Shown piece after piece: positions 8,671-59,527 of a DNA stretch of 64,000 nt. The notes under the pieces are model-generated. The model was not told the DNA's origin, did not search any database, and saw only the letters and a list, made by a program, of their open reading frames with translations. Numbering within the stretch: position 1 is the stretch's first letter; each line of letters begins with the position of its first letter. A program made the position numbers and the translations under genes. The stretch is taken from assembly GCA_964467905.1 (NCBI GenBank), contig CAYXSY010000004.1:1182-65181 (forward strand). Reading direction: 5' to 3'. This DNA is from an uncultured Planctomycetales bacterium (lineage in GTDB: Bacteria > Omnitrophota > Gorgyraeia > Gygaellales > Profunditerraquicolaceae).

Positions 8671-10859
8671 TTATGGAACATATAAATTCTGGCTTGATCC
8701 TGGAAGTATCAGTGCAGGGAAATGTTTTGAAAATGGCCTTATTTGAGCGTGAGTCTTTTGCTCAAACTGTTAGGCATTATAATAATGTTGTTGTAGATTT
8801 CAGGCAAATCCAGCATCTCTCCGAGGATATTATCAATAGCTTAAATAGATCTCTTGTTAAGGAAGATATAGATATCTCGGAAAATATAAGAAAGACAGGG
8901 CAGCTTCTCTGGGATTATATTATTGCTAAGCCGGTTAAGGAAAAGTTAAGGCATGTTTCTAGCCAGGACTTAATTTTATCTTTAGAAGAAGAGCTCTCAG
9001 GTATCCCTTGGGAAATGCTTTACGACGGCGTTGATTTTCTATCCCTTAAGTTTAATATAGGCAGATTGCTGAAATCACAAGGCAATACACCTACGCCCAG
9101 ATATCGTAGTTTAAGTTCGGGATTAAAAATGCTTATTTTGGCTGACCCGGGCGGAGATTTGAAGTCTTCTTATCGGGAAGGATTGTATATCAGAAACCGA
9201 TTCGAGAGGAAGCAGGAGAAAATCACGATAGATTTTAAGTCTACGCAGATAGAGAGAATTTATGTTAAAAAAAACCTGCGTGACTACGATATAGTCCATT
9301 TTGCCGGGCATTGCGAATATAGCCAGACAGAACCGCTTAAAACAGGCTGGATATTGAGTGATGGCAAGTTTAGTATTGAAGATATTCAAGCTCTCTCCCA
9401 AAGCCCGCATTTTCCATCTTTGGTTTTTTCAAATTCATGCCACTCGGCTACGTTGGATGCTGATACGCAGATGTGTTGTTCTCAAAGAGAGAATTATAAT
9501 TTGGCTCAGGCTTTCTTGTTTGCTGGCGTAAGGCATTATATAGGATCTATACGCAAGATAGAAGATAGTGCTAGCTTAGCTTTTGCCAGCGAATTCTACG
9601 ATAATTTGATTAAAGGCAGAAGCATAGGAGAATGTATGCGTCTGGGGCGCCTGAAGTTGAAACAGGAGTATGGCCCCAGGGATTCTTTTTGGGCTAGCTA
9701 TTTGCTTTATGGAGATCCGAGTTTTTCGTTTTTTTACCAGCGCCTGAACAGCAGTTCTGGAAGCAAGAAAGACCCGCTTATTTTCAGCAGAAGTTCCTAT
9801 CTTATCTGCATTATTTTTATCCTTACATTATTATTGAGCTTAGCATTCAGGTACCTTCCTACTCTAAACCCGCAGGCATATTCTTTATATCTTAGTTCAA
9901 AGAGCATGCTTTCTAGGGGAGAGAATAAGCAGGCCATTGCTAGCCTAGAGAAGGCTATAACCAGCGATCCGTTATTTCTGGATAATTATGCAATGTTAGC
10001 ACAGCTATATCATAGGACAGCCGATATAGATAATGCGATTAAATATTATTCACTCTATGCCGCAGTAAGCGAAAAGAAAAAAGACTATATTAATTTATCC
10101 AAGGCATATATTTATTTAGGCTGGGTTTATCATCTGCAAGGCAATTATCCAAAGGCCTTTGATTTTTATAATAAGGCATTGTCATTGAGTATCGATAGGC
10201 GCGATAGACTTAACCAGGCTTCTGCATTGAGAAAGCTGGCTATTTGGTATTTGGATAAGGAGGACTACGATAAATCTCTTGAGCTGTTGGTTAAGAGTTC
10301 CGAGATTAACCGTAATGGTAAAGGTTTGCGTGAGCATAAATATAATCTTGCCTGCGATTATTTTGATATCGGTCTGGTTTTTACCAATAAAGAAGATTAT
10401 GCCAGCGCAAAAGAGTTCTATAACAAGAGCAGAAAGCTTTTTGAAAGTTTAAAGTTGGATAATGAGCTTAGCGATTACTGGTTTAATTTAGGCGAGATTA
10501 GCCTTTTTGATAAAGAATATAATACAGCCATTTCTTATTACAAGAGAGGCTTGGTGATAGATCAGAAACAGGGAAATTTGTTTAACTTAGCCTCAGATTA
10601 TAATATGATGGGCGAGTTTTTTATAGAAACCGGCGATATTAAAGAAGCAGAAAAATATTTTGAGAAGGCATTAGATATCTGCCGGAGAATAAAATCACCT
10701 ATGGATTTGGCTTCTGTTTATTATAATCTAGGAATGCTTTATAAAGCAAAAGAGCAAAAGCAGAGAGCAATTGATTATTTAAGGAAGGCGCAGGAGATAT
10801 ATTCTTCTATAGATACACCTGATTATGCTAATATAAAAGAAGAAATAATTAATTTTTAA
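8667..10859 (+). CDS. CHAT domain (caspase-like) protein with central TM helix and C-terminal TPR array
   Basis: IVHFAGHCEY (His codon 9309-9311) and LVFSNSCHSA (Cys codon 9438-9440) match the CHAT His/Cys dyad context. A hydrophobic helix YLICIIFILTLLLSLAF follows. After it come many TPR-like repeats (AIxxYxKAL-type). The start ATG overlaps the anti-sigma stop (ATGA-type coupling). Confidence 0.8.
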   Translation: MIMEHINSGLILEVSVQGNVLKMALFERESFAQTVRHYNNVVVDFRQIQHLSEDIINSLNRSLVKEDIDISENIRKTGQLLWDYIIAKPVKEKLRHVSSQDLILSLEEELSGIPWEMLYDGVDFLSLKFNIGRLLKSQGNTPTPRYRSLSSGLKMLILADPGGDLKSSYREGLYIRNRFERKQEKITIDFKSTQIERIYVKKNLRDYDIVHFAGHCEYSQTEPLKTGWILSDGKFSIEDIQALSQSPHFPSLVFSNSCHSATLDADTQMCCSQRENYNLAQAFLFAGVRHYIGSIRKIEDSASLAFASEFYDNLIKGRSIGECMRLGRLKLKQEYGPRDSFWASYLLYGDPSFSFFYQRLNSSSGSKKDPLIFSRSSYLICIIFILTLLLSLAFRYLPTLNPQAYSLYLSSKSMLSRGENKQAIASLEKAITSDPLFLDNYAMLAQLYHRTADIDNAIKYYSLYAAVSEKKKDYINLSKAYIYLGWVYHLQGNYPKAFDFYNKALSLSIDRRDRLNQASALRKLAIWYLDKEDYDKSLELLVKSSEINRNGKGLREHKYNLACDYFDIGLVFTNKEDYASAKEFYNKSRKLFESLKLDNELSDYWFNLGEISLFDKEYNTAISYYKRGLVIDQKQGNLFNLASDYNMMGEFFIETGDIKEAEKYFEKALDICRRIKSPMDLASVYYNLGMLYKAKEQKQRAIDYLRKAQEIYSSIDTPDYANIKEEIINF

Positions 10860-10927
10860 ATAGCCGTCTCTTAATATAAAAATCAATTTAGTTTGGAAAT
10901 TTACTTAAAAACCATTATAATTGTATT

Positions 10928-12103
10928 ATGAATAATCAGAAGCCCAGCACCATACTTATAGTTTCTTCAGACAAAGAGCTCAGGAAGATACTCAATATCT
11001 GTCTTGTGGGGTGGGGGTATAAGGTTTGTTTGTGGGATAGTGTTGTCGGTGATACCGGTCCGATTAAGAAAATATCTCCGGATGTCATCGTTATAGACGT
11101 GCATACCGCAAATAAAACTGATTTAGAGATATGCCATACATTAAAGAATGACTTTATGACCGCATTTATACCTGTTGTTACTCTGATAAATAAAAGACAG
11201 CTTCGCGGGCAGCTGTTGAATCTAAAGCATGGAGTAGATGATTATCTTATCAAGCCGCCTGATCCGCTTGATTTGCGAATCAGAATAGAGATGGCTTTAA
11301 AGAGGGTGCAGCATAGTTTTTATGTCAGTCCGCTCACTGGCCTCCCGGGAACGAGGATATGCGAAGAAGTATTGAATGATATTTTAGTAACGGGAAAACC
11401 TTTTTCTCTAGGCTATCTTGATATAGACAACTTCAAGTGTTTTAATGATAACTACGGTTATGTTAAAGGCGATATGGTTATAATGCAGGTTGCCTACATG
11501 CTTTATGTAACTATAAAGAAATACGGCACGTCAACGGATTTTATAGGCCACATAGGCGGCGATGATTTTGTTTTTATTACTTCTACCGATAAGTATAAAG
11601 CAGTATGCCATAATTTTATAACTCTTTTTGATAGGGTAATCCCGTTTCATTACACTGTCGAAGACAGGAATAACGGTTTCATCGTTGCCAGAAACAGGAA
11701 TAACCAGGTAAGAAAAACGTCGTTAATGACAGTTTCCATAGCTGTGGTAAACAGGCTTGGGGCATCCGAATTCAAAAATATATTTCAGGTTAATGAAAAG
11801 GCTGCTGAAATTAAGGGATATCTTAAAGGGATACCCGGCAGTAAGTTTATGGCAGAGAGAAGAAATGTTAAAAGTCCGGATCATTTGAACCCGCAGGTAT
11901 ATAAGAGGCAGGGCCATGCAGTAGATTCTTATAAACCTTTGGGCCAAAGGCTGCTTGAAAAACACATCATTTCTTCTGATGAGCTTGATAGTGCTTTAAA
12001 TTCGCACTGGAGAAGAGGTATGCTTTTGGGTGAGACTTTAAAAGAATTGGGTTTGGTAAAAGAGGAACAACTTGAGCGCTTGCTTTCCGAGGAGGGCAGA
12101 TGA
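10928..12103 (+). CDS. atypical receiver - GGDEF-like (GGDDF) - MshEN/T2SSE_N-like domain protein
   Basis: REC-like N-terminus (ILIVSSDKE...VIVIDV...YLIKP). GGDEF fold (SPLTGLPG, LDIDNFKCFNDNYGYVKGD, GGDDF at 11555-11569). The C-terminus has two tandem LGxxLxxxxxIxxxxLxxxL motifs (PLGQRLLEKHIISSDELDSAL / MLLGETLKELGLVKEEQLERLL), as in c-di-GMP-binding MshEN domains. Confidence 0.7.
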   Translation: MNNQKPSTILIVSSDKELRKILNICLVGWGYKVCLWDSVVGDTGPIKKISPDVIVIDVHTANKTDLEICHTLKNDFMTAFIPVVTLINKRQLRGQLLNLKHGVDDYLIKPPDPLDLRIRIEMALKRVQHSFYVSPLTGLPGTRICEEVLNDILVTGKPFSLGYLDIDNFKCFNDNYGYVKGDMVIMQVAYMLYVTIKKYGTSTDFIGHIGGDDFVFITSTDKYKAVCHNFITLFDRVIPFHYTVEDRNNGFIVARNRNNQVRKTSLMTVSIAVVNRLGASEFKNIFQVNEKAAEIKGYLKGIPGSKFMAERRNVKSPDHLNPQVYKRQGHAVDSYKPLGQRLLEKHIISSDELDSALNSHWRRGMLLGETLKELGLVKEEQLERLLSEEGR

Positions 12104-12624
12104 AAAGATTAATTATATTGTTTTCAATGGTTTTATTTATTGGCGCAGGATTCTCTTGGGCGCAGTCGAATAGCGGCTCTCAAGATGTCGCTGCTTTAAA
12201 GGATGAGATAATCCGCCTGCAGAATAGCGGTGAGCTAAGCATTAAAAGCATTAAAGCATGCTCTAAGATTAATGGCTACGGTTCGTACGTGGAGCTTGAT
12301 CCTCCTAAAGTCAAAAGCGGCGACAGGCTGCTTGTTTATCTTGAACCGGCCAACTACTATATAAATAAAAATAACTCTAAGTACGAAATATATCTGATAG
12401 AAGATATGCTTGTTCTAAATGACAAAGGGGATATCCTTTGGGGTAAGGAAGGAGCGGTTAAATATAATTATTCTTCTGATAATCCGGTGTTAGATTTATT
12501 TATTGCTAACGCTATTGATATTAAGGGGCTTGTTCCCGGCCGTTATATCTTTAAGGCAGAGGTCTCAGATAAGTTAAAATCCCAGAAGGCAAGTGCTATA
12601 TTATCTTTTGAGGTTGTTGAATAG
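12100..12624 (+). CDS. secreted hypothetical protein (signal peptide)
   Basis: 174 aa. N-terminal signal sequence MKRLIILFSMVLFIGAGFSWAQ. The start overlaps the stop of the upstream gene (ATGA). Confidence 0.5.
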   Translation: MKRLIILFSMVLFIGAGFSWAQSNSGSQDVAALKDEIIRLQNSGELSIKSIKACSKINGYGSYVELDPPKVKSGDRLLVYLEPANYYINKNNSKYEIYLIEDMLVLNDKGDILWGKEGAVKYNYSSDNPVLDLFIANAIDIKGLVPGRYIFKAEVSDKLKSQKASAILSFEVVE

Positions 12625-12669
12625 CGCGTGCCCTTGACACCGGATTAACTATATGTTAAACTTACTTTG

Positions 12670-12724
12670 ATGCCACGGTGGACAAATAATGATTGTCCAT
12701 AAAACGTGGCATTTTTTGTTTTTA
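12670..12724 (+). terminator. rho-independent terminator (nested stem-loop plus T-run)
   Basis: ATGCCACG (12670-12677) pairs with CGTGGCAT (12705-12712). The stem encloses an inner TGGACAA/TTGTCCA stem and is followed by TTTTTTGTTTTT. Confidence 0.6.
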
Positions 12725-12735
12725 GAAAGGAAACT

Positions 12736-13083
12736 ATGTCATACGCCGGACCGGAAAAACGTAAATACCCACGTCTCGAGCGCGCCTTTCTCGTATATTA
12801 TACCCCTTTATCAGGCCCGCAGGAGTTTGATTTGACCCAGGCTAAAAACATAAGCTTGGGAGGTTTATTGATTACTACCAGTCATCCTCTTGAAAAGGGG
12901 GCTGATCTGTCTTTAAAGATACGCCTTCCGGGGAATTATTACGCGAATCCTACAGCCAGAGTCATAGAGTCCTACCGCGTTAATCCCGGCACCCAGTTTT
13001 ACAATACCCGTCTGCAATTTTCTTCCATGAAAGATGAAGAGCGCAATGCTATGTCGCAGGTGATTGAAAGCTTCTCTAGGTAA
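12736..13083 (+). CDS. PilZ domain protein (c-di-GMP receptor)
   Basis: RKYPR (RxxxR) and NISLGG (D/NxSxxG) motifs. ATG at 12736 follows an AGGAAA RBS. The track start at 12706 lies inside the terminator T-run. Confidence 0.75.
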   Translation: MSYAGPEKRKYPRLERAFLVYYTPLSGPQEFDLTQAKNISLGGLLITTSHPLEKGADLSLKIRLPGNYYANPTARVIESYRVNPGTQFYNTRLQFSSMKDEERNAMSQVIESFSR

Positions 13084-13267
13084 GTTATTCCTCCCAGCCA
13101 AATTTCTTTAAAAAAATCTGTTAGATTTATTATATCTCTTACGTCTATTAAGGTGAGACCGTAATTTTATACCGCATGTGGCTGTATAAGACGGTTTAAC
13201 CCATCCTTAAGCTGGGGGTATCTATTATAAAAATAGGCTTATTGGATATTGGCGTAGGAGGCAGAAG

Positions 13268-14857
13268 ATGTTAAAGCGTTTATTATTTGTTTTTGTTGTC
13301 TTTTTTCTCGAGGCAGTGACGGTATATGCAGATGGTTTATCCTGGAAGCAGATAAGCAGAGATTTACTTGATACTAGAGATGCTGTCTGCAGTTATATTG
13401 ATGGCAATATTATTTATTTGGCGGCCTCAAGCGGGATTTTTATGAGTACGGATAGAGGATCGAACTGGAGGATTGTTTTAGCCGGTAGAAAGATTAATAA
13501 AATATACGCCGATACATCCTTCCCAAAAAGCGTTTACGCTGCTACTTCTGAAGGTATTTGGCAGAGCCCAGACGCAGGACAGAGCTGGAAGCGTATTTTC
13601 AAAGGTAAGGATTCATTGGAAAGGTACAGTACAAGTTTCTTGTCTTTGCCGGATATCATGCTTAACGGTACGCAGTCAGGTCTTTTCTTGAGTACCGACA
13701 AGGGTAGGACCTGGCGTAGGGTATCAGGGTATTTATCCGATACCTGTATATTGGCAATATCTTCATCCGGGGCCAACAGCAAATATATATACGTAGCTTC
13801 CGTGGATGGAGTATATATGTCTTCTGATAAGGGGCAGACTTGGGATAAGATTTATGCGGTTATTGCCCCGGAGAATTATGATGCAGGCTATGAAGAAGAT
13901 GTACAGGAAGATTCGGAACAGTCTTCAATTATAAGATATGTATCTGTTGCTGCGGATAACGATAAAATAATATATATTGCAACTACCGAAGGGGTTTACC
14001 ATAGCGACAATTTAGGTTTAAGCTGGGAGCGCATAAGTAGTTATGGGTTATTAAGCCGGGACGTTTATTTTGTTCTGCCTTTAAGTAAAGATAAGATCTA
14101 TGCTGCGACTAAAACAGGATTATTTTTATTTGATAAAGGGCGTTGGCAGGAATTAACCTTTGGCCTGCCGATAGATGAGATAAGATCAGTCTACAGCGAT
14201 AAAAAAGAAAATCTTTATCTTGCAACTGACCGAGGATTATTTATGAGCCAGGGGGGCAAGAATGAGATTAATGTGGATAAAGATTATCATGATAGTATTA
14301 TTTCTGATGGAGAAGAGCCGGGTATAAATAAAGTCCAGGAAGCGGCTATCGAATATGCGGAGGTTAACATCAAGAAAATCAAAGATTGGAGAAAACAGGC
14401 TCAATTGCGTGCTTTTCTGCCTAAGATAGCGGTGGATTTTGATTGCGATAGGGATAAAACAGTCTCTACCAATACGTGGGGCATATATAGTTCTTATAGC
14501 AACAGCAATATCACTGCTCCGGCAAGGCATTATGTCGGCCCGGATGATAGTACCAGGTACTATAATAATAACTGGGGTGTTTCTTTGGTCTGGGAATTGG
14601 GGGACTTGATTTGGAGCGAAGCCCAAACTTCCATCGATGTGCGCTCTAGGCTTATGGTTCAACTCAGAGACGACGTGTTGGACGAGGTTACGAAGCTTTA
14701 TTTCGAGAGGATTCGTGTCAGAATGGAATTGGACAATTTGTCTATAGAGGACAGGAAAAAGCGTTTCGAGAAAGAATTGAAGTTGGCAGAATTGACTGCA
14801 CAAATCGATGCGCTTACCGGAGGCTACTTTTCGAGCCAGTTGGAGAAGAAGTATTAA
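13268..14857 (+). CDS. secreted BNR/Asp-box repeat beta-propeller protein; its 3' end is the island integration target
   Basis: Signal peptide plus repeated SxDxGxxW motifs (STDRGSNW, SPDAGQSW, STDKGRTW, SSDKGQTW, SDNLGLSW). The C-terminal ~65 aa are duplicated at 19617-19805. Confidence 0.75.
   Translation: MLKRLLFVFVVFFLEAVTVYADGLSWKQISRDLLDTRDAVCSYIDGNIIYLAASSGIFMSTDRGSNWRIVLAGRKINKIYADTSFPKSVYAATSEGIWQSPDAGQSWKRIFKGKDSLERYSTSFLSLPDIMLNGTQSGLFLSTDKGRTWRRVSGYLSDTCILAISSSGANSKYIYVASVDGVYMSSDKGQTWDKIYAVIAPENYDAGYEEDVQEDSEQSSIIRYVSVAADNDKIIYIATTEGVYHSDNLGLSWERISSYGLLSRDVYFVLPLSKDKIYAATKTGLFLFDKGRWQELTFGLPIDEIRSVYSDKKENLYLATDRGLFMSQGGKNEINVDKDYHDSIISDGEEPGINKVQEAAIEYAEVNIKKIKDWRKQAQLRAFLPKIAVDFDCDRDKTVSTNTWGIYSSYSNSNITAPARHYVGPDDSTRYYNNNWGVSLVWELGDLIWSEAQTSIDVRSRLMVQLRDDVLDEVTKLYFERIRVRMELDNLSIEDRKKRFEKELKLAELTAQIDALTGGYFSSQLEKKY
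14663..14857 (+). repeat. left copy of the duplicated BNR-gene 3' end (putative attL plus island-borne surrogate 3' end)
   Basis: 35-bp perfect core, then ~160 bp that differ from 19652-19805 at roughly one position in five (hand alignment), mostly without changing the protein. Confidence 0.7.
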
Positions 14858-14993: not shown

Positions 14994-15299
14994 ATGAAAG
15001 TATTACAAGGGATTCTATCTGAGAGTAAAGATTATTACCTTCAGGTACGGGAGAAGATTAAGAAAAAGCTAGCCGGTTTGCCAAAAGGTAGCGTAAAGGA
15101 AAGAAAGATAGCCGGCAAGAAATACTATTATCTGCAGCAGAGAGTGGGCAAGAAAGTAGTCCATAAGTATTTAGGTAAGAGTAGGCCCGAAGGGGTCGCA
15201 AACCAAATAAAACAACGCAGAGCATTCAGCTTGGAACTAAAAAAGGTCAATGAGGCATTGAGGATTATCAAACGTTCAGAGGGCAGAAGGCGTGGTTGA
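14994..15299 (+). CDS. small basic hypothetical protein (possible regulator or antitoxin partner of the NTase)
   Basis: 101 aa, Lys/Arg-rich (KERKIAGKKYYYLQQRVGKKVVHKYLGK). Good RBS. The stop overlaps the start of the next gene. Confidence 0.5.
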   Translation: MKVLQGILSESKDYYLQVREKIKKKLAGLPKGSVKERKIAGKKYYYLQQRVGKKVVHKYLGKSRPEGVANQIKQRRAFSLELKKVNEALRIIKRSEGRRRG

Positions 15300-15975
15300 T
15301 CTTATTGGAAAGATTATTAAAGTATTTGTTGATAACAACCTTTTTGAAGAAGGGGTTGAGCTAATCGGCAGCTGGTGTTTTAAATTATACCAGAAGCATC
15401 TTGGAGTAGAGAATTTTCCTCTGCGTACACCGGATATCGATTTTCTGATACCTACGCCTTTTCATGGCAAAGCTCATGCGGACTTTATAGAGCAATTACA
15501 GGCATTGGGTTTCGAGACTGATTTCAAAAGTGACGGCTCGATATATCTCTGGAATGCGGAATTAAAAATTGAGTTTATCACTGCTGAAAAAGGCAAGGGA
15601 ACCGATAGGGCGATTAAGGTTAATAAGCTAGGTATTAATGCTATCCCCTTAAGGCATGTTGGCTTGCTTCTGGATAAGCCAATAATTATCACGGATAACG
15701 GAATGAAAATCCGAGTCCCTGCGCCCAGCCGTTTCTGCCTGCATAAGCTTATCATTGCCTCTCGCAGAAGAAAACCGGATAAACGTTTAAAAGACCTGCA
15801 GCAGGCAATTTATACCTCTACAATTGTCGATAAGAAGGAAATGCAAGAGTTATTCCGGACCCTACCGAAGAAGTGGCGTCAGGCTGTGTTAAGGATGTTG
15901 GATGAGGCTAAGCCGGAATTCCCTTTAATGGATACAGAGATGGAGAGGCTATCGATTACACTACAAAGTATGTAA
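15292..15975 (+). CDS. nucleotidyltransferase-fold protein (AbiEii / GSU2403-like)
   Basis: 227 aa. LIGSWCF...LRTPDIDFLIP resembles the G[GS]...R-T-x-D-I-D-F signature of AbiEii-type and related pol-beta-fold NTases. Confidence 0.55.
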   Translation: MVDLIGKIIKVFVDNNLFEEGVELIGSWCFKLYQKHLGVENFPLRTPDIDFLIPTPFHGKAHADFIEQLQALGFETDFKSDGSIYLWNAELKIEFITAEKGKGTDRAIKVNKLGINAIPLRHVGLLLDKPIIITDNGMKIRVPAPSRFCLHKLIIASRRRKPDKRLKDLQQAIYTSTIVDKKEMQELFRTLPKKWRQAVLRMLDEAKPEFPLMDTEMERLSITLQSM

Positions 15976-15994
15976 TAGTCAATATGTAGTGTAA
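15956..15994. promoter_or_regulatory. second copy of the TTACACTACA / ATGTAGTGTAA inverted repeat
   Basis: Left arm 15956-15966 (10/11 match), right arm 15984-15994 (11/11), 17-nt spacer. Spans the stop codon of the NTase gene, upstream of the next gene. Confidence 0.5.
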
Positions 15995-16041
15995 AAGCTA
16001 CAAGATAATCCTTGAGATATTTAAAACGTTCGTTAATTTCT

Positions 16042-16051
16042 GGGGGGGGGG
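16042..16051 (+). repeat. G10 homopolymer tract immediately upstream of the ATG at 16054
   Basis: Ten consecutive G at 16042-16051, 2 nt before the preferred start codon. Confidence 0.9.
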
Positions 16052-16053
16052 AT

Positions 16054-17418
16054 ATGAACACATTTTTCAGCTATCAAGCAATAGATAAAGAAGGTAAGCA
16101 TTGCGGTGGTATAGTTGAGGCAGTTAATCAGGATCAGGCAGTTAAAAAACTACAAGAACAGGGGCTAATTATAACTTCTTGCCTAATGGTGTCGAATAAA
16201 GGGGATAGAAATTCTATTCCAGTCAGCTGGTTCTTTATATCTTGCGGCGTGATTATTCTTCTCGTTATTTTTAGTGCCTCGCTATTTTTTATCCGAATGG
16301 CTTCTAATTCCAGAGATGATTTAATAAAAGGAGGCCATAGCGATAAAGTTGATAAGCAAAAATTTGATAAAGTATATCGTGCTGCGAAAACGCTTACTGC
16401 CTCAATTGAAGGAGGAATTAGCTATCCAAAATTGCAAGAACTAAACCGTGATTTCCTTACAGAGATTTCTATAGCAGAAGATAGCGTTATTACAGATAAA
16501 GAAAAGAAAGTTATAGAATTATATAAAGCAGCTTATTCCGACTATTCAATAGGCGAGACTGTTTGGGAAGCTATTATTAAATATAGTCTCGATAACCATT
16601 GGCATCAGTATCCTGGCAAAAGTAAGTTGGTTTTTGAAAAATTGAAACCAATTATAGAGCAATTCGGATTAGTATTGGTTTCTAAGCAAACAGAATATGA
16701 TGGAACAATGTATGAATTGCCTAAAACGGAACTTTCAAAAATTTGGATTGCTGCAAAAGAATATATTGATGAAGCAAACGCAATTATATTGGACAATAAA
16801 GTTATCGAAGACGCCGGGGCTGAATTACCAAGTCCAATATCTAACAGAGCGCAGGAATCTAATGGCGAGGAAGAACTATTTCAGAAAGCCAAAGCCGAGA
16901 ACAAAATCCAATCCTATAAATATTTTTTGATGCGTTTTCCTAATGGTATATTTTCTGTTGACGCGCAGAATTTATTGGAAAAGCGTTATAGCGAGGGTAT
17001 CAAAGCATGTTCTGATTTAATTATTGAAGCGGTAGATTACTGTTTAAGAGTTTGTTCTGGATATTCAGATATATGGAGCATTTCTACAAAGAGTCGCTAT
17101 TTGAATTTTAATGAACAAGTTTTATCGATGCAAAAAGAATTTAAAGCTAAAGGAATATTAGAAGAAATAAACAAGACTAAACTAAAACTGGAAGAGTTTA
17201 TGAGGAAATTTATTGATCCACCTCCCAAGTATAGTGAAGCATACAAAAAACTTGTGGAATTATATGGAGTATATTCTCAGATATATGCGTTAGCAATACA
17301 GCCTACGGGATCATTGGCTACATTTAATAATTCCATTAACACCTTAAAAAGTAAAACCATCAGTCTAAAAAGTGAATTAGATGCTATGATTAATATGCCT
17401 CTTGATAATAATCCCTAA
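16054..17418 (+). CDS. membrane protein with GspF/PilC-N-terminal-like head domain, one TM helix and a large uncharacterised helical domain
   Basis: MNTFFSYQAIDKEGKHCGGIVEAVNQDQAVKKLQEQGLII resembles the N-terminal module of T2SS/T4P platform protein F. TM helix WFFISCGVIILLVIFSASLFFI. I recognise nothing in the remainder. Confidence 0.5.
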   Translation: MNTFFSYQAIDKEGKHCGGIVEAVNQDQAVKKLQEQGLIITSCLMVSNKGDRNSIPVSWFFISCGVIILLVIFSASLFFIRMASNSRDDLIKGGHSDKVDKQKFDKVYRAAKTLTASIEGGISYPKLQELNRDFLTEISIAEDSVITDKEKKVIELYKAAYSDYSIGETVWEAIIKYSLDNHWHQYPGKSKLVFEKLKPIIEQFGLVLVSKQTEYDGTMYELPKTELSKIWIAAKEYIDEANAIILDNKVIEDAGAELPSPISNRAQESNGEEELFQKAKAENKIQSYKYFLMRFPNGIFSVDAQNLLEKRYSEGIKACSDLIIEAVDYCLRVCSGYSDIWSISTKSRYLNFNEQVLSMQKEFKAKGILEEINKTKLKLEEFMRKFIDPPPKYSEAYKKLVELYGVYSQIYALAIQPTGSLATFNNSINTLKSKTISLKSELDAMINMPLDNNP

Positions 17419-17438
17419 TCTGATCGCTGAGGCACGCA

Positions 17439-18032
17439 ATGAAAGTTACCTTAAATTTTCAAGATATTGATAACGCATATACTTCAGGAAACTTTTCTGC
17501 TGCAGTTAACTGTGCTCATAATTTTCTTCAGAAAGCGTTATATTTCTGTTTAGCGGAAGCTTTAATTTATCTCAATTGTCATTCTAAACTTATTAGAATA
17601 TGTATCAAAAATAATCATCCCGATGCTGTTAGATATCAAAAAGAATTCAAGGGCGCAGAGTATTATATCCGGCAGATTCATATGGATGATGTTAGTCTGA
17701 AGAACTTTGAAATTACAGAAGCTTTTGCTATTGGCTTAATTTCAGAAACAGAATATGCAGAGGTTAAGAATGTTAAAGATTTTAGGGATAAAAAATCAGC
17801 ACACAATCTTTATTTTGATAAAATGGTATCTGCTGGTCAAATACCAAGAACAGAAATAAGGGAAATCATCGATTCGGCAAAAGGTCTTATAACTAAGATT
17901 AATGTCAGGAAAGACCGGGTTGCTAAAGAAAGCTTAACTGAGACTGTGAATAATTTCGGTAAAAATATAAATGAAGTTTTAAGTAAGCACACGATTGATA
18001 AATTATTGCAGATTATTGCAAGAGAGGATTGA
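17439..18032 (+). CDS. hypothetical protein, possibly HEPN-like
   Basis: 197 aa, all-helical look. N-terminal SGNFSAAVNCAHNFLQKAL resembles HEPN helix 1/2. FRDKKSAHNLY fits an R-x5-H variant of the HEPN Rx4-6H motif. The stop overlaps the recombinase start. Confidence 0.4.
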   Translation: MKVTLNFQDIDNAYTSGNFSAAVNCAHNFLQKALYFCLAEALIYLNCHSKLIRICIKNNHPDAVRYQKEFKGAEYYIRQIHMDDVSLKNFEITEAFAIGLISETEYAEVKNVKDFRDKKSAHNLYFDKMVSAGQIPRTEIREIIDSAKGLITKINVRKDRVAKESLTETVNNFGKNINEVLSKHTIDKLLQIIARED

Positions 18033-19690
18033 TGAAATCCGTAATCTATACCAGAGTAAGCAGCAAAGAGCAGGTGGACAAGTATTCTCTTCCCGCACAG
18101 GAGCGAATACTTAAAGAATGCATAGCCAAAGAAGGCCATGAATTTGTTGATATATATACCGATGCCGGCATTTCTGGTGAAAAGATTATCAACAGACCGG
18201 AGTTCCAACGGCTGCTTGTGGATGCTGATGAAAAGAAATTTCAGGCTGTTTGGGTTATAGACCAGGACAGGCTTTCGCGAGGTGATTTGACAGATTTGGC
18301 TTATATAAAGAAAGTTTTTAAGGAAAACAACATACAATTATGTACGCCATACCAAAAGCTGTCTCTCGAAGATGTAGACGATGATTTTATCAGCGATCTC
18401 TTTGGCATTTTAGCTAAGCGCGAAAGATTAAAAATAAAACAGCGCGCAGACAGAGGTAGGCAAATAAAGGCAGAAAAAGGTGAGTGGGGAGGCCGAACCG
18501 CGCCTTTTGGATACAGCTTTGATATCGAGAAAAACAAGCGTTTAGTTATTGACGAAGACGAAGCCCCTATCTATAGACAGATGATTTCTTTATTCTTAAC
18601 CAAGAATTACGGTATTAAGACTATTGCCGCTGAATTGAATAAACAAGGCTTTAGGAACCGTGCTGGCAAGCCATGGAGAATGCAGGCGGTTCACTATATC
18701 TTAAGGAGTCCGACTTACAAGGGTACGCTTGTTCATCAGAAATTCAAGTTTTACTATACCAAGGAAAATAAAAGACGCTGGCGTGACGAAAAGGTATATA
18801 CCGAAATACCTAATGCGCATCCGGCTTTGATTAGCGAAGAAACCTTTGATTTAATCCAGGATAGACTGACGAACAAAAGGAGCTCGCGTGTAGATTTTAA
18901 TTCCCTTCAGTTATTAACCGGCATACTGGAATGTACTTGCTGCCATAATACATTTAAAGTCGGCAGCACAAGCTTTGGTAAATGGCGGCATCAGATTTAC
19001 CGTTGCAAGACGCGTTATGCACATTGGTTTGATAAAGCCAAACCTACCTGCACGATGAAAACATTTCCTCTGGAGGAATATAACAATAAAATCTGGGGTA
19101 CCTTTCAGGAAGTAGCTAGAAGGCCTGAACTTATCAAGACGGCCCTTGAAAAATCAAGGGTGCCTAATTTAACCAGCCTTGAGTTTCATCAAAAAGAATA
19201 CCAACAGGTGACGCAGAGACTCGATAATTTCCAATCCCATAAGGAGAAAGCCATCTCTTTATGTGTAAAAGGCATAATCAGTGAGCAGGAATTCAAAGAA
19301 CAGCTTGCTTCTCTGATTGCGGAAAAGAGGATGCTTGACCAACAGAAGCGGCAATTAGAAGTCAAGGTAGAGTACCTTAAGAAGCTGTCTTCGCAGGATG
19401 TTAGTAAGGATGCCATCCTGAGATACGCCAAATTTTTCTACCAATCAGATAAGAAACTCACCATTAGCCAGAAAAGAAGGATTTTGGAGGCTTTTGTTAG
19501 CAGGATACTTCTATACAGTAACGGCGAATTTGAGCTTATCTTCAAGTTTCCCCTTCCTGATGACTCTCAACTCCAAGAGCTGCAATTGAATACAAATTCA
19601 CGGATACAAGGTGCAGCTCAGAGACGACGTGTTGGACGAGGTTACGAAGCTATATTTCGAGAGGATTCGCGTGAAAATGGAGCTGGATAG
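18029..19690 (+). CDS. large serine recombinase (resolvase/invertase N-terminal domain, recombinase domain, zinc ribbon, coiled coil)
   Basis: VIYTRVSSKEQ catalytic-serine motif. A recombinase domain follows. CTCCHNTF...YRCKTR zinc ribbon. Coiled-coil-like EQEFKEQLASLIAEKRMLDQQKRQLE. The last ~25 codons read through the 35-bp repeat. Confidence 0.9.
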   Translation: MMKSVIYTRVSSKEQVDKYSLPAQERILKECIAKEGHEFVDIYTDAGISGEKIINRPEFQRLLVDADEKKFQAVWVIDQDRLSRGDLTDLAYIKKVFKENNIQLCTPYQKLSLEDVDDDFISDLFGILAKRERLKIKQRADRGRQIKAEKGEWGGRTAPFGYSFDIEKNKRLVIDEDEAPIYRQMISLFLTKNYGIKTIAAELNKQGFRNRAGKPWRMQAVHYILRSPTYKGTLVHQKFKFYYTKENKRRWRDEKVYTEIPNAHPALISEETFDLIQDRLTNKRSSRVDFNSLQLLTGILECTCCHNTFKVGSTSFGKWRHQIYRCKTRYAHWFDKAKPTCTMKTFPLEEYNNKIWGTFQEVARRPELIKTALEKSRVPNLTSLEFHQKEYQQVTQRLDNFQSHKEKAISLCVKGIISEQEFKEQLASLIAEKRMLDQQKRQLEVKVEYLKKLSSQDVSKDAILRYAKFFYQSDKKLTISQKRRILEAFVSRILLYSNGEFELIFKFPLPDDSQLQELQLNTNSRIQGAAQRRRVGRGYEAIFREDSRENGAG

Positions 19691-57276: not shown

Positions 57277-58533
57277 TTGTTAAATATCTTTTTATTTTTC
57301 CTCTACGCAATCCTGCCGGTTTTTCTTGTTAAGTTACTGCATCAGACAATTCCCGCGTTATTGTTGTATTATCTTATTTTGCTAAGTATACTTTTTTATT
57401 TCTTTAAGAAGAGGGCCTTTTTGAAAAGGCGTTTTGAAATTAAGCGCCAGGAAATAAGGGAGAATACTAATATCCTCAAGGATGATATATCGCGTGATAA
57501 TAAAAACAAAGATTCGGCTTTAGATAAAATCTCACGTTATTATCATCTTAAGGATATACTCGTAAAGCTGAACCAGAATTTTGATATTGATGCAATAGCC
57601 GAAGATTTAGTTTCGATATCGTTTTCTAATATTGGGAAAGAAAGCGGTACCTGCCTTTTATATCTTGCCGATAAAAAAGAAAGAATCCACTTAGGATTAT
57701 TTAAGAGTAAAAAAGAAGATAAGGACCTGGTTATAAAAGCCAAGGAGGGAGATATATTTGATTTTTGGGTTCTAAGACATGCCAGTCCTATTCTGATTGA
57801 GGATTTAAAAAGAGACTTCCGTTTTGACCTTGAAAAACTCGACCGCCGGCATACAAGGATATTCTCTTCGCTTATCAGCTCTCCGTTAATAAGTGAAACT
57901 GAATTTGTCGGTATATTAAGGTTAGATAACCATAAATCTTATTTTTATTCTCAAGATGACCTTAGGTTTTTAGCCACTATCTCAGATTTATCTGCAGTGG
58001 CACTAGAAAATGCCCAGCTTTTCCGTAGAACAGAAGAGCTGGCGATAAAAGATGCCCTCACTTCTTTTTACCGGAAAGAATATTTTCTGGGGCGCCTGGA
58101 TGAGGAATGCAAAAGAGCGGTACGCAAAAATGAGTTTTTTTCATTACTGATGCTGGATATCGATCATTTCAAAGATTACAATGATAAGTTTGGGCACGCA
58201 TCAGGAGATATAGTCTTAAAGAATTTGAGCGCGCATATAGAAGAATTCTTGCGAGATTATAACCCTATTATAGGGCGTTTTGGGGGCGAGGAATTTTGCA
58301 TTATCCTTCCTTTTGCCGATAAAGAGAGAGCTGTTCAGATAGCTCAAGATTTGCGTTTATCTGTAGAAGGGATGAAAATAGTTTTGCGCCGCCTGGAGAA
58401 CAAAATTACTGTCTCGGTAGGAGTAGCCACTTTTTTAAAAGATGCGCCTGAAGCAGGAGAGCTTATATTTAAGGCGGATCATGCTATGTATGAGGCAAAA
58501 AAACAGGGAAGGAACAGGGTAGCTTATGCTTAA
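57277..58533 (+). CDS. membrane-anchored GAF-GGDEF diguanylate cyclase
   Basis: N-terminal TM helices, GAF-like region, DALTSFYRKEYF...LDIDHFKDYNDKFGHASGD...GGEEF. Confidence 0.85.
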   Translation: MLNIFLFFLYAILPVFLVKLLHQTIPALLLYYLILLSILFYFFKKRAFLKRRFEIKRQEIRENTNILKDDISRDNKNKDSALDKISRYYHLKDILVKLNQNFDIDAIAEDLVSISFSNIGKESGTCLLYLADKKERIHLGLFKSKKEDKDLVIKAKEGDIFDFWVLRHASPILIEDLKRDFRFDLEKLDRRHTRIFSSLISSPLISETEFVGILRLDNHKSYFYSQDDLRFLATISDLSAVALENAQLFRRTEELAIKDALTSFYRKEYFLGRLDEECKRAVRKNEFFSLLMLDIDHFKDYNDKFGHASGDIVLKNLSAHIEEFLRDYNPIIGRFGGEEFCIILPFADKERAVQIAQDLRLSVEGMKIVLRRLENKITVSVGVATFLKDAPEAGELIFKADHAMYEAKKQGRNRVAYA

Positions 58534-59527
58534 CCTCAGCATATATATCCTACTGGCTATTTTATTCTCGGCAGTTATTTTAGCGAAAAAGAAGCTTGCT
58601 TTAAAGGCGGTTCTTTTAGAAAGGGAGTGTTTGTTTTTAGATGACGGGTATAAGAAATTATATGCAGATAGTTTAAGGCTTAAAGACGAGCTGCGCAGTT
58701 TATATCTTCAGCTGGATGAGACAGTGGCTATCTATAATACTGCAAATAATATTTGTAAGAGCCTTGATGATAACGTCGTATTCAGTTTGTTTAAGGAAGA
58801 AATCAGGAAATATCTAAAAATCGGCGATTGTGTCTTTCTAAGAAAGGGACAGGACGCGTCTTCTTATGCCGGATATCTAAGTATACCTTTAGAAATCGAT
58901 AAGAATAATTCAGTCAACTTATTGGTGTCGGGAGTGAATGAATCCGACAGGGAGAAGCTCAATATTCTTTCCCAGCAGTTCTTACTTGGGCTTAAAAGAG
59001 CAACGCTTTATGGCAGAATTCAGGAACTAGCGATAACAGATACTTTGACCGCAGCTTTCAGTCGCAGGTATTCATTGGAAAGAATGGAAGATGAATTGCA
59101 GCGTTCAAAGAATATGAAACTCCATTTCTCTGTTTTGATGATTGATGTAGACCACTTCAAGGAATTTAACGATAAATACGGACATCTTGTGGGAGACGTT
59201 GTCTTAAGAAAAATAGCCGCGGTCATCAAGGATAACATAAGGCAGATTGATATGTTGGGCAGATACGGAGGAGAAGAGTTTTTAGTTGTTTTAAGCGAAA
59301 CCGCCCGTCAGGATGCATCTTTTGTTGCCGAACGTATAAGACAGGCCGTGGAGAATGTGGTTATCGACGCCTATGACGAGAAACTAAAGACAACGATTAG
59401 TATAGGCGTAGCCGTGTTCCCTAATTCGGCTCTTAGTGTCCAGGGGCTGATTGATAAGGCAGATAGGGCAATGTATGCTGCAAAAAGCTCAGGTAGGAAT
59501 AGAGTCAATATTTATTCAGAACCTTAA
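58526..59527 (+). CDS. membrane-anchored GGDEF diguanylate cyclase
   Basis: TM helix, DTLTAAFSRRY...IDVDHFKEFNDKYGHLVGD...GGEEF. Overlaps the upstream gene by 8 nt. Confidence 0.85.
   Translation: MLNLSIYILLAILFSAVILAKKKLALKAVLLERECLFLDDGYKKLYADSLRLKDELRSLYLQLDETVAIYNTANNICKSLDDNVVFSLFKEEIRKYLKIGDCVFLRKGQDASSYAGYLSIPLEIDKNNSVNLLVSGVNESDREKLNILSQQFLLGLKRATLYGRIQELAITDTLTAAFSRRYSLERMEDELQRSKNMKLHFSVLMIDVDHFKEFNDKYGHLVGDVVLRKIAAVIKDNIRQIDMLGRYGGEEFLVVLSETARQDASFVAERIRQAVENVVIDAYDEKLKTTISIGVAVFPNSALSVQGLIDKADRAMYAAKSSGRNRVNIYSEP

Follow-up and report, generated by a model that had tools for sequence, protein, structure and literature searches.

A REC-GGDDF protein with a C-terminal MshEN_N module in Omnitrophota: a candidate diguanylate cyclase with a probable c-di-GMP sensor of its own

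How is a nucleotide cyclase controlled when its receiver and its signature motif are both atypical and its C-terminus resembles a receptor for cyclic di-GMP (c-di-GMP)? This question is raised by a protein of 391 amino acids (aa) encoded on contig CAYXSY010000004.1 (assembly GCA_964467905.1) of an uncultured bacterium that GTDB places in Omnitrophota. The stretch analysed here, called the window, comprises 64,000 nucleotides (nt), positions 1,182 to 65,181 of the contig. The gene was originally predicted to encode an atypical fusion of a receiver (REC) domain, a GGDEF domain with a GGDDF signature and an MshEN domain, and this observation is confirmed. The open reading frame (ORF) was real, all three domains exceeded the cut-offs of their profiles, and each of the motifs IVSSDKE, VIVIDV, IKPP, FNDNYGYVKGD and GGDDF was read in the sequence. 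The protein is tentatively interpreted as a GTP-specific diguanylate cyclase in which a fused c-di-GMP sensor replaces phospho-control and feedback through the inhibitory site (I-site), a proposal to which slightly less than an even chance is given.

Domain architecture and recurrence of the fusion

Matches to the three domains had E-values from 1e-7 to 1e-14, far past chance. The receiver was a bare pass in Pfam (Response_reg, PF00072, aa 9-120, 32.2 bits for a cut-off of 30.2). The GGDEF domain scored well above its thresholds (PF00990, aa 135-220, 45.8 bits for a cut-off of 23.8; TIGR00254, 51.7 bits for 37.4), with alignment restricted to positions 5-90 of the 161 in PF00990 and to the N-terminal half of TIGR00254. 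The C-terminal end matched NCBIfam NF053729 ('cyclic di-GMP-binding domain, MshE-related') at aa 337-388 over model positions 1-52 of 53. With 51.5 bits for a cut-off of 38, the proposed MshEN homology was upheld by profile search. The AlphaFold2 (AF2) model of the protein had a mean predicted local distance difference test score (pLDDT) of 79. Coordinates of all domains are given in Table 1. The protein was 100% identical to database protein P0001.

Well over 100 orthologues were gathered, 386-438 aa long and about 60% identical. Those with a named source were all labelled Candidatus Omnitrophica/Omnitrophota, and the full-length form was present in about 40 Omnitrophota metagenome-assembled genomes (MAGs) among species-representative genomes. 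Database names for the family were only 'diguanylate cyclase' or 'response regulator'. Full-length orthologues of 50-63% identity (L018, L020, L022, L023, L026, L030, L036 and L039) were also encountered in MAGs labelled Patescibacteria, Planctomycetia/Planctomycetales, Deltaproteobacteria or Methanosarcinales; the bins probably bear a wrong label or contain contamination, and horizontal transfer is the less likely explanation.

An exhaustive HMMER search (1.84 billion cluster representatives, cut-off E<=1e-30) recovered 669 clusters at 50% identity, mostly composed of REC-GGDEF proteins of about 310 aa that were matched over residues 8-313. The serines S13/S14 of the receiver, the GY pair and the string GHIGGDDF were fixed in 115 or more of the 120 Omnitrophota orthologues. 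Profile search and column counts together gave a large GGDDF family, in agreement with the idea that such homologues form a distinct group, and these comparisons place the window protein in a 'GHIGGDDF' subfamily of REC-GGDEF proteins that is both large and distinct.

The MshEN fusion recurred as well, in proteins of about 395 aa with the N-terminal subdomain (MshEN_N) only and in proteins of about 485 aa with a full MshEN. P0123, P0125, P0128, P0141 and P0198 (about 480 aa) combined REC-GGDDF with a full MshEN; four of the five matched NF053729, and each matched either PilB residues 2-138 or NfrB residues 471-604. According to a search seeded with P0129, the full-MshEN proteins formed a second large Omnitrophota family, flagged by PF05157, next to a third family of about 308 aa composed of REC-GGDDF only. 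No GGDEF-MshEN fusion was found described in the searchable literature, and none figured in the architecture list of Wang et al. 2016 (Supplementary Table 4). The REC-GGDDF-MshEN protein is not regarded as a new kind of system.

Receiver and cyclase domains

Established response-regulator chemistry requires an acidic pair and a switch threonine for canonical phosphorylation. The corresponding quintet was S13-S14-D57-I87-K109 (D12/D13/D57/T87/K109 in CheY numbering) and departed from the canonical phosphorylation set. In a hidden Markov model (HMM) alignment to PleD, S13 and S14 fell opposite the acidic residues D9 and D10. In the 120 orthologues, the five residues were displayed by 115, 118, 120, 119 and 119 sequences, respectively. 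The Ile at position 87 contrasted with T/S in 121 of 150 representatives of the broad family. The AF2 model displayed the alternation of strands and helices typical of a receiver. The original prediction had rightly recognised D57, the KP motif and the Ser-Ser replacement, but it had treated the domain as essentially intact and overlooked the exchange of CheY T87 for Ile. Because the Mg2+-binding acidic pair and the switch Thr are lost, canonical phosphorylation is unlikely. REC, with three of the five phosphorylation and switch residues gone, is probably a pseudo-receiver.

Composition of the quintet followed the presence of MshEN. It was DDD[T/S]K in all 43 MshEN-less REC-GGDDF proteins, EHDIN in 54 of 74 full-MshEN paralogues and SSDIK in the window family, which carries MshEN_N only. 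Among representatives at 50% identity, a canonical quintet was encountered in three of 14 MshEN-bearing proteins versus 101 of 123 MshEN-less proteins (Fisher p 8e-6, a value that ignores phylogeny). A shorter Omnitrophota paralogue of 320-332 aa (L044-L047, L055) was composed of REC-GGDDF without MshEN and displayed V-P-D at the acidic-pair positions (LAVPDLKLREIL); P0127, the only representative aligned, had Ile at the T87 position. This paralogue would have a second kind of degenerate REC, without the fusion, and is therefore a partial exception to the correlation.

The GGDEF fold was complete in the AF2 model (pLDDT about 80-93) despite the half-length profile matches. Foldseek searches with this model matched PleD (2v0n, E 2e-19), DgcR and WspR, and found isolated GGDEF domains at target-normalised TM-scores of 0.75-0.80 (E about 1e-9). 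By HMM alignment to PleD, D165, K170, N173 and D182 corresponded to D327, K332, N335 and D344, and D212/D213 to E370/E371. The catalytic set is intact and strongly selected: all thirteen residues (D165, D167, K170, N173, D174, G181, D182, G210, G211, D212, D213, K296 and K300) occurred in 120 of 120 orthologues, although overall identity is only about 60%, and the same set was nearly invariant in 150 broad-family representatives.

The signature itself departed from [G/A/S]G[D/E]E[F/Y] by an Asp at position four, and the GGDDF string was displayed by 118 of 120 orthologues. Two residues before GG, H208 (120 of 120) stood in for the usual Arg, and Y178 (119 of 120) took the place of the usual His. 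Among the best 150 of the 669 broad-family clusters, the D-D pair was found in 147, H208 in 144, Y or F at position 178 in 138 and an Asp equivalent to D182 in 140. An insertion of roughly a dozen residues after the signature carried Y242, D246 and R257, invariant residues specific to the GGDDF clade.

RxxD inhibitory sites are common in active diguanylate cyclases but not obligatory. At the I-site position, five residues before GG, RxxD was absent; the window protein displayed TSTD and its relatives mostly N..D. D204, the Asp of the old RxxD position, was still kept, and may or may not join Y242, D246 and R257 in an alternative nucleotide-binding or inhibitory site. Compared with REC-GGDEF cyclases of the PleD/WspR/DgcR type, the window protein was thus alike in domain order, fold and metal, phosphate and guanine residues. 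It differed in its GGDDF, in H for R and Y for the His of GH, in the missing RxxD and the insertion, in a REC without acidic pair or T87 equivalent, and in the added C-terminal MshEN_N.

Is such a domain active? The fourth signature residue is the catalytic base that acts across the dimer, and an Asp there retains the carboxylate. Strict conservation of the catalytic positions, the large family and the lack of any other enzymatic domain argue for an active GTP-specific cyclase. The only published evidence found that GGDDF can be catalytic concerns GSU1937 of Geobacter sulfurreducens, whose GGDDF domain yields both cyclic GMP-AMP (cGAMP) and c-di-GMP in vivo and is inactive as a GADDF mutant (PMC8835794). 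Compared by its published description, GSU1937 resembles the window protein in its GGDDF and in lacking a partner EAL or HD-GYP domain. It differs in transmembrane HAMP domains N-terminal to GGDDF and in the Hypr Ser that permits cGAMP, whereas the window protein is soluble, displays Asp at the Hypr position and carries REC and MshEN_N. With all PleD substrate and metal positions invariant and the GGDDF domain of GSU1937 active, the suggested 'possibly impaired or altered-specificity' cyclase was not borne out, although the changes at H208, Y178 and D213 could alter kinetics or chemistry.

A competing reading holds that the GGDDF domain is dead and that the protein is a pure receptor or adaptor for c-di-GMP (perhaps GTP), which binds the messenger by its MshEN_N and signals via protein-protein contacts of the pseudo-receiver and of the scaffold formed by the GGDEF domain. 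In its favour, receptors built on degenerate GGDEF domains are a familiar class, PelD being an example. Non-canonical GGDEF motifs are usually inactive, as exemplified by the GGDDF-EAL protein PA3258, and the half-domain Pfam and TIGR matches as well as H208 for Arg and Y178 for His could be taken as signs of decay. The inactivity of PA3258 also counts directly against the proposed cyclase, as does the fact that activity of GSU1937 is known from one chimeric construct only (PMC8835794). Receptor GGDEF domains, however, lose catalytic residues patchily, while the metal, phosphate and base positions are invariant here in 120 orthologues and the 669-cluster family. Moreover, the protein has no other output domain, and GGDDF is active in GSU1937. 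A dead domain is accordingly regarded as unlikely, though not negligibly so.

As for the product, the Hypr switch to cGAMP needs a Ser at the position of PleD D344. Because an Asp is found there, c-di-GMP is the predicted product and not cGAMP. Hypr-type altered base specificity was rejected in view of the invariance of D182 (120 of 120), and a Cas10/mCpol-like 'GGDD' cyclase in view of the GGDEF profile and structure matches and of the DxDxFKxxND element. One could still suppose that the GHIGGDDF subfamily makes something else (cGAMP, cyclic di-AMP, a linear dinucleotide or another nucleotide) and that a P...H type of MshEN_N is tuned to this product. Three substitutions near the active site (E to D, R to H, and H to Y/F) are co-fixed across the clade, Y242, D246 and R257 of the insertion are invariant, and GSU1937, the sole GGDDF enzyme tested, is of the Hypr type and makes cGAMP. 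Against this, an Asp occupies the PleD D344 position in all 120 orthologues and in 140 of the 150 representatives, N173 is invariant, and the equivalents of the guanine-reading Gly of MshE are kept, so that another product seems very unlikely. It would be a similar long shot to see in the GHIGGDDF clade, with altered chemistry or product and a dedicated MshEN sensor, a self-contained synthase-receptor unit built on an undescribed molecule or logic.

The MshEN_N module and a possible feedback loop

MshE binds c-di-GMP mainly through two Leu triads, backbone amides at conserved Gly, a turn Gly and a terminal Gln in each motif (Wang et al. 2016). The backbone amides of the conserved Gly read guanine O6/N7 and exclude adenine; among mutants, hydrophobic changes cost more than 10-fold in affinity and charged changes less than 5-fold (Wang et al. 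2016). These authors gave a strict motif, RLGxx(L/V/I)(L/V/I)xxG(L/V/I)(L/V/I)xxxxLxxxLxxQ, to which a relaxed form, [RKPN]hGxxhhxx[GAS]hhxxxxhxxxhxx[QNKRYWST], is added (Wang et al.).

The window protein followed the corresponding 24+5+24 layout, with motif 1 at aa 337-360 (PLGQRLLEKHIISSDELDSALNSH), the spacer WRRGM and motif 2 at aa 366-389 (LLGETLKELGLVKEEQLERLLSEE). AF2 predicted four C-terminal helices within residues 338-390. The chain terminates at aa 391, two residues past motif 2, and had no match to PF05157 (T2SSE_N); it carries MshEN_N only. Pfam T2SSE_N was silent because only the N subdomain is present, whose first helices are omitted from that model. A profile of 25 orthologues matched residues 302-360 of Thermus PilF in PDB (overall E 5e-11). 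GSPII-C of PilF comprises residues 304-476, and the match therefore falls in GSPII-C by these domain limits (PMC11731258).

Conservation was concentrated at the positions that matter in MshE. P337, G339, L353, L357 and G368 were present in 120 of 120 orthologues, G375 and L382 in 118, L338 in 115 and L386 in 113; at position 367, Leu was found in 81 and Phe in 34 of the 120. Both hydrophobic triads of MshE were matched, L338/L382/L386 corresponding to Leu10/54/58 and L353/L357/L367 to Leu25/29/39. The guanine-reading Gly pair was kept as G339 and G368, and the turn Gly as G375.

The module was like the MshEN domains of Vibrio cholerae MshE, Escherichia coli NfrB and T. thermophilus PilF (GSPII-B and GSPII-C) in its tandem motifs, predicted four-helix bundle, Leu triads and Gly. 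In these proteins MshEN is located on an ATPase or glycosyltransferase; the window protein differs in placing MshEN_N alone at the C-terminus of a cyclase, in lacking Arg at position 1 of its motifs, and in ending motif 1 with His and motif 2 with Glu. Precedents exist for departures of this type. Motif 1 of NfrB, which binds with a dissociation constant (Kd) of 1 uM, starts with PLGQILLEN and is almost identical to the family consensus PLGQILLEK.II..EQLDEAL. GSPII-C of PilF has Pro at motif position 1, while GSPII-B has Lys/Leu there and a Kd of 6 nM. The Omnitrophota paralogues of about 485 aa (P0123, P0125, P0287) shared the GHIGGDDF core, the absence of RxxD, Ile at the T87 position and a PLG...H motif 1; they differed in having kept the C-terminal subdomain (MshEN_C, T2SSE_N), in a canonical motif 2 (K/R-I-G...Q) and in the quintet EHDIN instead of SSDIK. 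Taken together, the kept positions make it likely that the MshEN_N module binds c-di-GMP.

Several features weigh against binding. Although the key Leu and Gly positions were kept, the module departed from the strict consensus, displaying for instance Pro instead of Arg at position 1 of motif 1. Departures even from the relaxed pattern were found at positions 10 (H) and 24 (H) of motif 1 and at positions 1 (L), 7 (K) and 24 (E) of motif 2. Both stacking Arg of MshE were missing, as was MshEN_C, which in MshE supplies D108, a possible ligand contact. Non-binding MshEN homologues are on record, namely XpsE, PA4526 and GSPII-A of PilF; the latter combines His at position 24 with a degenerate motif II. 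A rival reading accordingly retains the active cyclase and takes the C-terminal bundle for a degenerate MshEN_N that binds no nucleotide and serves dimerisation or docking, like N-domains of the GspE/XpsE type. It would account for the five motif departures and for the documented non-binders. It is less easily reconciled with the invariance of the hydrophobic triads and Gly, the residues most costly to mutate in MshE, with a score above the NF053729 cut-off, or with position 24 of motif 2, which is Glu in the window protein but Gln in 94 of 120 orthologues. This alternative is judged improbable, yet it has to be reckoned with.

Combined with the cyclase, the module suggests the following scheme for the tentative reading given at the outset. 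(a) The pseudo-receiver would mediate dimerisation without phosphorylation, REC being only a scaffold for dimers or partner binding. (b) The GGDDF domains of this soluble enzyme would convert GTP to c-di-GMP. (c) MshEN_N would bind c-di-GMP, so that the enzyme could sense in cis the c-di-GMP that it makes or that of the cellular pool. (d) Ligand-bound MshEN_N would restrain productive pairing of the GGDEF domains, giving negative feedback and a c-di-GMP set point. Step (d) is the weakest, and positive feedback or partner signalling would fit equally well.

REC decay tracks the fusion and RxxD was found in none of these proteins, a pattern which suggests that in the fused lineage regulatory input shifted from phosphorylation and the I-site to a c-di-GMP-binding module. 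The genomes also contain further c-di-GMP machinery. Besides the PilZ gene, the window encodes two canonical GGEEF cyclases, and PilZ or HD-GYP genes occurred near some orthologues. The two GGEEF genes (57277-58533 and 58526-59527) overlap by 8 nt and matched the whole Pfam model with 138 and 160 bits; the first encodes a GAF-GGDEF protein of 418 aa and the second a protein of 333 aa with an RxxD (RQID), a contrast to the GGDDF protein within the same genome.

The nearest functional parallel is DgcJ-NfrB of E. coli, where a specific cyclase is likewise physically coupled to an MshEN receptor and the signal is local. It differs in consisting of two proteins, the receptor controlling a glycosyltransferase, while the window protein is one polypeptide that lacks a downstream output domain, which points to self-regulation.

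Three observations speak against the loop as a whole. The linker at aa 312-333 had pLDDT below 50, so that AF2 predicts no intramolecular interface. D57 and K109 are kept, and some unorthodox phosphorylation may take place. Finally, the correlation between REC and MshEN may go back to one ancestral event and need not mean that the two co-evolved repeatedly.

If the proposal holds, nature would offer in this protein a clear example of a cyclase that is fused to a high-affinity receptor for c-di-GMP and thereby senses the second messenger locally or in itself, with the fused MshEN_N standing in for phospho-relay input and I-site feedback. A function would also be assigned to a protein about 60% identical across Omnitrophota, a phylum not known to have cultured representatives. 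It would further bring into view the large REC-GGDDF subfamily, whose signature most c-di-GMP censuses count among the degenerate ones and for which only one tested GGDDF enzyme was found in the literature. Pfam annotation misses the MshEN_N part, and counts of c-di-GMP receptors in such genomes are therefore underestimated. These points are of moderate interest, mainly for c-di-GMP specialists.

Genomic neighbourhood and other features of the window

Table 1. Features of the cyclase gene and its surroundings in the window, and neighbours of orthologues on other contigs
Feature	Contig	Position (nt)	Strand	Basis
Gene for probable pseudo-REC / GGDDF-type GGDEF / MshEN_N protein, 391 aa	window	10928..12103	+	ORF and domain matches
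REC domain, aa 8-125, quintet S13-S14-D57-I87-K109	window	10949..11302	+	PF00072, PleD alignment, AF2
Complete GGDEF-fold domain, aa 133-312, 'GHIGGDDF' subtype, TSTD for RxxD	window	11324..11863	+	profiles, AF2, Foldseek
GGDDF signature codons, G210-F214	window	11555..11569	+	direct sequence reading
MshEN_N module, aa 337-389, two 24-residue motifs and 5-residue spacer	window	11936..12094	+	NF053729, PilF match, AF2
Signal-peptide protein, 174 aa, lineage-restricted	window	12100..12624	+	4-nt ATGA overlap with cyclase stop
Intrinsic terminator, interrupted 17-bp hairpin and U-tract	window	12669..12725	+	RNA fold
Stand-alone PilZ protein, 115 aa, RxxxR and NxSxxG	window	12736..13083	+	Pfam PilZ, L087 gene call
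STAS-PilZ directly 3' of orthologue	L001			
PAS-GGDEF-HD-GYP directly 5' of orthologue; three PilZ genes further 5'	L003			
Three PilZ genes 5' of orthologue	L090			
Glycosyltransferases 5' of orthologue	L005			

The gene behind the cyclase encodes a protein with a signal-peptide-like N-terminus (MKRLIILFSMVLFIGAGFSWA), and its overlap with the cyclase gene, to which it had been called translationally coupled, was found to be real. The 174-aa protein belonged to no Pfam or NCBIfam family and had only five homologue clusters, one of which is a 62%-identical copy located 3' of an HSP20 gene. Its AF2 model (pLDDT 60) was a beta-sandwich without a PDB match at E<=1e-3.

The terminator postulated before PilZ escaped a simple terminator scan and was recovered by RNA folding. 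Its hairpin (12669-12713) is followed by UUUUUUGUUUUU, and the fold of 12625-12740 had a minimum free energy of -28.9 kcal/mol (z -2.6). An Rfam scan of 10700-13400 (E<=1) returned only a spurious lncRNA, and the idea of an RNA element in the stretch that separates PilZ from the gene for the secreted protein was discarded in favour of this plain terminator; within 12634-12735 the scan displayed no riboswitch. The same interval contains a promoter-like TTGACA-17-TAAACT with an upstream TG (10 of 12 consensus positions), just 5' of the hairpin.

The PilZ ORF matched Pfam PilZ (PF07238) with 39.3 bits for a cut-off of 22.5 (E 6.6e-10 for the 115-aa form) and displayed RKYPR and NISLGG. The claim of a stand-alone PilZ protein with intact RxxxR and NxSxxG motifs thus stood, but the GTG listed as its start (12706) falls within the stem of the terminator and the real start is the ATG at 12736, as called for the 115-aa gene on the identical contig L087. 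The U-tract ends about 10 nt from this ATG; PilZ expression would therefore need read-through or a transcript starting at the hairpin.

Upstream of the cyclase, a promoter-like TTGGAA-17-TATAAT (10893-10928, 10 of 12, a consensus match only) ends 7 nt 5' of the ATG. The region had 11 promoter-like sites versus 8.2 +/- 3.0 in shuffled sequence, not above expectation. No obvious Shine-Dalgarno sequence preceded the gene. The gene may have a leaderless mRNA and may be transcribed on its own rather than with the CHAT gene upstream.

A link between the cyclase and neighbouring genes had also been suggested as possible. The cyclase, the 174-aa secreted protein, PilZ and the upstream genes for an extracytoplasmic function (ECF) sigma factor, an anti-sigma factor and a CHAT protein would then form one functional module. 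Besides the 4-nt overlap, such a module could invoke the nearest relative, in which the genes for CHAT-TPR (53% identical), cyclase (71%) and small protein (45%) display the same order and the same overlap, and the PilZ genes found near some orthologues. The retained order is the expected outcome of the short divergence time of this relative. The link did not survive a comparison of nine contigs, located through exact look-up of proteins, and of about 35 loci in species-representative genomes of GTDB. Neighbours differed in almost all of the about 35 loci, and the order was kept only in the closest relative. Out of 53 genes located downstream of orthologues in these loci, two encoded PilZ and none a protein like the 174-aa one, whose 62%-identical copy is not beside a cyclase either. 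A strong terminator separates the cyclase pair from PilZ, and no ECF/CHAT genes were found upstream in L001, L003, L005 and L090. The multi-gene module is already largely refuted by synteny, and the chance left to it is slight indeed. A conserved operon was likewise rejected, no neighbour being kept family-wide and nothing extending beyond genus-level synteny.

Occasional PilZ and HD-GYP neighbours (Table 1) only confirm the place of the protein in c-di-GMP signalling. In L003 (1-955) and L090 (642-1870), three tandem stand-alone PilZ genes were located a few kb 5' of the orthologue, a layout that hints at a less tight grouping of c-di-GMP genes within one sub-lineage.

Directly 3' of PilZ, the window encodes a 529-aa signal-peptide protein (13268-14857) with BNR/Sortilin-Vps10-like repeats, which resembles the F510_1955 glycosylhydrolase family (NCBIfam E 1e-30, below cut-off). 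It is followed at 14994-19690 by a small ORF, a nucleotidyltransferase (NTP_transf_8), two ORFs without family match and a large serine recombinase (Resolvase, Recombinase and Zn ribbon). GC content was 0.34 at 16001-18000 versus about 0.41 elsewhere, and the segment 14994-19690 looks like a mobile island. Throughout the window, 61 of the 63 called ORFs were located on the + strand, and GC skew was positive in all 2-kb windows.

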